A DNA stretch of 64,000 nt, taken from the NCBI RefSeq assembly GCF_963506605.1, contig NC_083281.1, positions 13,206,001 through 13,270,000 on the forward strand, given 5' to 3'. The DNA is from Zootoca vivipara. Taxonomy: Eukaryota. Position 1 is the first letter of the stretch; the number at the start of each line of letters is the position of its first letter. Position numbers and translations under genes: made by a program. Shown in pieces: positions 31,060-31,305 of this stretch. The notes under the pieces are model-generated. The model saw only the letters and a program-made list of their open reading frames with translations. It ran no database searches and had not been told where the DNA came from.

Positions 31060-31300
31060 GCTCGCCTTCCTCCCAGCACCGAGAAGGGCGGCGCGTCAGC
31101 AGCCTCGCCTAGCCAATCCCCCTCCGCGTTTTTCAAGGCGGCGGCTGGATTGGCTGATCCGACCGATTCGCACGGGCGCTGGGGATTGGCCGCCCAAGAG
31201 CAGGCTGCGGAAGGCGGCACAGTCAAGCGACGGACTTCGGCGCGCGTGCGTGAGGGAGGAGAAGCGAGAGACCGGCCCGTCTTTTCCTCGTTCTCAGACT
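31060..31300 (+). promoter_or_regulatory. Small CpG island / putative promoter and 5' leader of the CDC7 copy
   Basis: Abrupt AT-to-GC transition at about 31060. CCAAT 31113-31117, ATTGG 31149-31153 and 31185-31189 (36-bp spacing), and GGCGCG E2F-like cores. Confidence 0.65.
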
Positions 31301-31305
31301 GACAG

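Follow-up and report, generated by a model that had tools for sequence, protein, structure and literature searches.

What activates retrocopies is still an open question; promoters inherited from the parent are rare and have been described from mammals. In the available part of their article, Carelli et al. 2016 (PMC4772013) report six such retrocopies in human and seven in mouse, about 3% of expressed copies, with a CAGE-defined start as a requirement, and cite Okamura and Nakai 2008. The multicopy Pack-TIRs of animals form a second related system, for which the accessible portion of Tan et al. 2021 (PMC8277862) gives four cases in reference genomes, including the frog Pack-hAT-N8_XT, which carries a piece of the CAPSL 5′ UTR in three copies. 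NF-Y promoters with several CCAAT boxes provide a third: in the excerpts at hand, 36 bp is one preferred distance between NF-Y-bound boxes (PMC4889920), and CTTGAA is a functional variant of the CHR, an element that also works in reverse orientation, according to a study relying on cross-species conservation (PMC4176359). CDC7 is absent by name from the main texts of PMC4176359 and PMC4994865, the supplements of which may class it.

Analysis of a 64,000-nucleotide stretch of Zootoca vivipara DNA (the window, meaning the whole stretch) reveals a processed copy of CDC7 headed by a CpG-rich block with three CCAAT boxes (Table 1). The preferred reading, to which we assign a probability of roughly 0.55, is that the parental promoter and first exon were copied from an mRNA started upstream, and that the block has stayed unmethylated and is capable of driving the copy as a promoter of NF-Y type. 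Like the retrocopies of Carelli et al. (PMC4772013, as far as the portion seen extends), the locus would owe its promoter sequence to an upstream-started mRNA that brought the downstream sequence along, and its upstream part aligns to the parental locus. It differs from them in that this alignment is read here from sequence alone whereas theirs have CAGE-defined starts, in belonging to a lizard, in being younger (dS 0.045 against 0.08–0.39), and in having a first exon that is a transposon chimera without the native donor. A literature search judged by listings and with limited subscription coverage turned up nothing on either a CDC7 retrocopy of lizards or a CDC7 Pack family; the new elements are the transposon-chimeric template and the presence of the same promoter in 16 Pack-hAT copies, which serve as a natural CpG control.

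Table 1. Features of the CDC7 retrocopy and its surroundings, in window coordinates.
Feature	Position	Strand	Remarks
SERTAD1-like	19111-20127	minus	
AT-rich dispersed repeat hosting the retrocopy	30640..31046, resumes after 34632	.	41 genome matches; 5′/3′ flanks adjacent in L034, L032, L035
Left target-site duplication, at least 13 bp	31047..31059	+	recurs at 34620-34632 with 1 mismatch; single in empty sites
Extra G, 5′ junction	31060..31060	+	absent from target; parent has C at aligned place
Copy of parental CDC7 promoter/exon 1	31061..31295	+	versus C7:24025002-24024721 (minus strand); deletions of 13, 17, 17 bp near 31089, 31229, 31261
Three CCAAT boxes, 36/36 bp spacing	31113..31189	+, -, -	CCAAT 31113 (+), ATTGG 31149 (-), ATTGG 31185 (-); all retained from parent
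CHR-like hexamer	31132..31137	-	CTTGAA on minus strand (TTCAAG at 31132); common to parent; chance level
E2F-like site, one mismatch, still present	31236..31243	+	second remaining one at 31186
hAT-type 3′ subterminal piece, 33 bp	31297..31329	+	ends at CAG/GTAAGT donor of hAT-type family; in-frame upstream ATG at 31306
Intronless CDC7	31330..32907	+	12 parental exon blocks; parental ATG 31402; frame open to stop
Parental 3′ UTR	32908..34600	+	two later insertions with short flanking duplications, about 33594-33730 and 34389-34572
Poly(A) remnant	34601..34619	+	parent reads on in non-A sequence
Right target-site duplication	34620..34632	+	pairs with 31047-31059, 1 mismatch
Diverged SERTAD-like frame, no Pfam match	37774-38781	minus	
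BLVRB-like exons	48267-55300	minus	

The insertion combines introns removed at splice junctions, a poly(A) tract and a target-site duplication, as expected of a processed retrocopy. The duplication that a sequence-only reading of this DNA had proposed to end at 31059 is borne out by its recurrence behind the A-tract and by empty target sites, namely the paralogous host-repeat sites L034 and L032, in which the motif occurs once with both flanks adjoining. Segmental duplication, considered as an origin, is ruled out by the absent introns, the poly(A) and the duplication. The left edge of the target, TT/AGA, resembles what we take to be the consensus of an L1-type cut, and we infer insertion by an L1-type enzyme. 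The extra G at the 5′ junction is ambiguous, being either an untemplated cap-derived G, a source described in the part of PMC9341517 available, or a G of parental origin, one CTC unit having been lost; as the latter explains it equally, it was rejected as proof of a full-length RNA.

The parent is the intron-bearing CDC7 gene on the minus strand of C7, whose 12 exon blocks match the copy at 94–100% identity. Homology of the block to the parental upstream region, as the sequence-only reading supposed, is established by alignment to the CDC7 promoter and exon 1: 221 of 235 aligned bases are the same, leaving 14 substitutions (94% identity) besides the three deletions. Parental sequence upstream of the CCAAT boxes is present in the copy, in agreement with the further proposal that the template RNA reached 5′ of them. 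C7 is the sole non-transposon match of the block, and the aligned region is the strongest CpG island within the 120 kb of C7 scanned. Parental exon 1 ends at CCG/GTAGGG within the block and is spliced to exon 2 in two RNA reads, which join 31264 to 31329 with parental TTTCCC between; the reads are few and the junction is exact. This donor falls inside the third deletion of the copy, which consequently lacks it. The notion that a repeat inserted at C7 simply includes the block was discarded, as no terminal repeats of the hAT-type family surround the block there and parental reads splice from it. A parental origin of the feature is very probable.

Parental intron 1 holds a 2-kb composite insert (G000:C7:24024711-24022678) that is missing from the L025-type capture described below. 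It consists of repeats and sequence from a different CpG island (C4:77.42 Mb), ends in a second hAT-like terminal repeat, and appears to be a second Pack-type element in the CDC7 5′ region that postdates the promoter capture.

Downstream of a CT tract, the copied exon gives way to a 33-bp piece that matches, at 97–100% identity, the 3′ subterminal sequence of a hAT-type family with CAGTG...CACTG ends and 8-bp target-site duplications. GTAAGT follows this piece in 9 of 9 fetched family members, and the copy passes from the family's donor position exactly into the exon-2 acceptor. Because the hAT piece is cut precisely at this donor and joined to exon 2, the template was likely a transposon-chimeric mRNA, and we infer the spliced transcript of a CDC7 allele whose intron 1 contained a hAT end. 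The simplest assumption is that this allele already lacked the native donor; alternatively, the donor could have been lost in the course of reverse transcription or later. A search of present-day parental intron 1 and of the 60-kb parental locus did not recover the 33-bp piece, and that intron contains no hAT end of the family in question. A contig from one DNA-type run is identical to 31192-31326, which argues against an assembly error at the chimeric junction unless that run was the assembly source. An in-frame ATG lies within the piece, 32 codons ahead of the parental one, so that a DNA transposon end shapes both the first exon and the start codon of a young kinase copy. The chimeric exon, the deleted donor and the spread of the block by Pack-hATs had all been overlooked by the sequence-only reading.

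The promoter block also matches 16 further loci, in two structures. Fourteen (L017-L024, L026-L030 and L038; e.g. G000:C8:67137795-67139397) are a 1.5–1.6 kb element in which about 310 bp of CDC7 promoter is fused in sense to exon 1 of FAM174, whose source gene lies on C11 and whose captured piece matches PF06679 (E 8.9e-13); two of the fourteen share flanks and represent a single insertion, duplicated. The other two loci, L025 and L037, carry a longer CDC7 5′ piece. Terminal repeats with perfect 8-bp duplications bound 11 of 11 full-length copies scored, and L038 likewise by eye; four copies are truncated. The elements thus show the terminal inverted repeats with 8-bp duplications and the captured host sequence, with a parent that is not transposon-bound, by which Pack-hATs are recognized, the hAT label resting on the duplication length and the end pattern. 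The 5′ end of the family has 811 exact genome occurrences, and none of the 32 hAT-domain loci fetched, from 74 matches, is an autonomous partner with matching ends. Like the Pack-TIRs in the portion of Tan et al. seen (PMC8277862), these are non-autonomous terminal-repeat elements with distinct target-site duplications that bear a GC-rich host 5′ piece on several chromosomes; unlike them, they reach 16 copies, occur in two structures of which one includes a FAM174 exon-1 piece, and carry a promoter that has also moved via RNA.

Minor variants occur among these elements. In L022, L023, L028 and L029, CpG decay has produced an ATG that shares the frame of the FAM174 piece. In L025, the 5′ end is separated from the CDC7 piece by about 60 bp (L025:4920-4975) that contain words which we take to be ETS- and YY1-like and may represent a third promoter capture. 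Two further members of the terminal-repeat family, L046 and L039, are filled with other sequences, GC-rich or with CCAAT boxes, which suggests that the family captures promoters habitually.

The 33-bp piece and the 16 Pack copies come from one terminal-repeat family, which raises another possible source for the 5′ block: a Pack-hAT with a captured CDC7 promoter that landed back in or before CDC7, or that became attached when reverse transcriptase switched templates. Consistent with this, the CT tract is where both the retrocopy and L025 break off, one base change is common to the two, and AGGT occurs on both sides of the exon-2 junction. Against it, the junction uses a perfect donor and a true acceptor, no other locus among 33 matches combines the block with the 33-bp piece, and the block is free of the CpG decay found in every Pack copy. 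In addition, at two diagnostic positions the base of the block is that of the parent and differs from that of 14 of 14 Pack copies; a tree groups the block with the parent at a support of 89/87, under the starred threshold (L023 and L037 left out of both comparisons). These bases and this grouping make derivation from CDC7 itself appear more likely than derivation from a Pack copy, and the Pack-hAT route is very improbable.

Under the preferred reading, a CDC7 allele would have gained a hAT end in intron 1 and, with its native exon-1 donor deleted, would have used the hAT donor. Transcription starting upstream of the CCAAT boxes would have carried the promoter sequence into the mRNA, a copy of which an L1-type enzyme would then have inserted. 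Binding of NF-Y could subsequently keep the CpG island open in the germline.

The block at 31060-31305 has 67% GC and 29 CpGs at an observed/expected ratio of 1.06, in comparison with only 1–7 CpGs in flanking 246-bp windows. The CpG-rich block with CCAAT boxes at 36 bp is therefore as the sequence-only reading described it, and its additional statement that CpGs are retained holds beyond the expectation for a neutral copy. Specifically, at 24 ancestral CpG sites the retrocopy has undergone no transition (one site carries a transversion) and the parent two, compared with 103 of 351 over 15 Pack copies (L023 left out as a duplicate), or 5–9 of 24 per full copy. Zero losses have a probability of 2.4e-4 at the pooled Pack rate and 0.004 at the rate of the lowest copy; the Pack copies share ancestry, just 11 of the 103 losses being private, and the age match to the retrocopy is rough. 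The retrocopy has more non-CpG differences (6 of 140, against 0–5 of 159 in Pack copies) and is hence no younger than they are. Within the retrocopy, the body lost 7 of 49 CpGs and the block 0 of 28 (Fisher p 0.044). The difference between retrocopy and Pack copies favours an unmethylated state of the retrocopy block in the germline, and speaks to methylation rather than to transcription. In the parental promoter (G000:C7:24025002-24024780), 5 of 30 ancestral CpGs are gone, exceeding the loss of the retrocopy.

The same CpGs could instead have been kept by luck or by the methylation resistance of a CpG-rich piece as such, the promoter being a passenger in a silent or nearly silent pseudogene-to-be. 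This alternative is clearly less probable than a live promoter, although it deserves serious consideration. Three deletions within 282 bp of promoter speak for it; the decay of the same CpG-rich block in 15 of 15 Pack copies scored speaks against it.

The frame 31306-32907 encodes a protein kinase of 533 amino acids, whose best solved relatives are human CDC7 (E 6e-185). Ten of its 11 exon junctions correspond to internal GT-AG introns, and the remaining one is an internal in-frame loss of 162 nt in kinase insert 2, near 32021, starting where human crystal constructs are also cut. At this place (32019-32024) the junction is non-GT with AGGA on both sides, indicating a deletion or a rare GA-AG splice. 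Parent and copy differ by a dS of 0.045 and a dN of 0.019 (ratio 0.43, Fisher p 0.016). Among amino-acid changes polarisable by eye with human CDC7, 9 of 10 fall on the copy, giving a rough branch dN/dS of about 0.8 and thereby suggesting relaxed selection; changes such as H126N, R296C and P301Q affect residues common to parent and human. Both observations suit a passenger promoter. All indels are in-frame, and frame-breaking events are absent, whereas the 3′ UTR would lead one to expect 2.4–7 of them (P 0.09–0.001), which speaks against a pseudogene-to-be. The frame is kept, and constraint on it appears relaxed.

RNA data comprise three shallow raw runs with the same species label and unstated tissue, about 6% of each being read and 71 reads placed. 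None of the 71 is assignable to the copy, as a passenger promoter would predict: diagnostic sites are parental in 6/6, 6/6 and 13/13 reads, and at 31771/31777 four of seven reads are parental and three unassigned. Depth across 31051-31200 is zero in these runs. Antisense reads at 30701-31050 were rejected as local transcripts, their several differences pointing to a paralogous repeat source. The acceptor-like site that the sequence-only reading placed near 31298 exists insofar as an AG occupies 31296-97; it arises from the junction with the transposon piece, and no RNA joint in the three shallow runs used it.

As to regulation, the block has, by sequence, the several CCAAT boxes at a preferred spacing that mark NF-Y promoters, in mixed orientation; just two such triplets within 100 bp occur across the 64-kb window. 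Dinucleotide shuffling of the block (20,000 rounds) yields three or more CCAAT boxes with p=0.00075, at least one of four CHR hexamers, both strands counted, with p=0.26, and two or more GGCGCG (here at 31090 and 31239) with p=0.21. Thus, apart from the CpG island, the CCAAT triplet alone exceeds chance, the CHR-like and GGCGCG matches being at chance level. The parent has four E2F-like sites with one mismatch, two of which the copy has lost to deletions. Like the NF-Y multi-CCAAT promoters in the excerpts of PMC4889920, PMC4176359 and PMC4994865, the block combines a CpG island, several CCAAT boxes at 36 bp and a reverse CTTGAA near the start; unlike CDE/CHR or E2F cell-cycle promoters in the portions of the latter two, its CHR and E2F matches are at chance level and read in one species.

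These counts bear on whether a complete cell-cycle promoter was inherited, with NF-Y plus E2F/CHR imposing the timing of the parent on the copy. The CCAAT triplet, the CHR-like hexamer and two E2F-like sites are all kept, and a reversed CTTGAA could be functional on the evidence of the excerpted PMC4176359. Chance-level CHR-like and GGCGCG matches and the deletion of two E2F-like sites weigh against it and render it improbable. Cell-cycle control of the copy, as judged from its motifs, appears unsupported for the same reasons. Of the NF-Y plus E2F/CHR architecture put forward earlier, the CCAAT triplet stands out from chance and the remainder does not. For the NF-Y-type promoter preferred here, the loss of two E2F-like sites would make basal or germline expression more likely than tight cell-cycle timing.

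One promoter is present in 18 copies in one genome, namely the parent, the retrocopy and 16 Pack-hATs, with differing CpG fates. With this set one can test directly why a CpG island stays unmethylated after a move, whether through its sequence alone, through bound NF-Y, through being transcribed or because it escapes the silencing of transposons. A more far-reaching reading, rather unlikely as a whole, would join these elements: a hAT-rewired exon 1 of CDC7 gave a chimeric mRNA that was retroposed with its NF-Y promoter, loss of E2F-like sites produced a germline-active second CDC7 uncoupled from the cell cycle, and the 300-bp promoter is unmethylated only in the RNA copy as opposed to the 16 DNA-transposed ones. 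If true, the last point would constitute a natural experiment on the state of a CpG island after relocation.

The copy lies between two SERTAD-type genes on the opposite strand, one of whose promoters is 9 kb away, so read-through from a neighbouring gene is a minor alternative. The order of the SERTAD- and BLVRB-like genes resembles what we take to be that of human 19q13.2.
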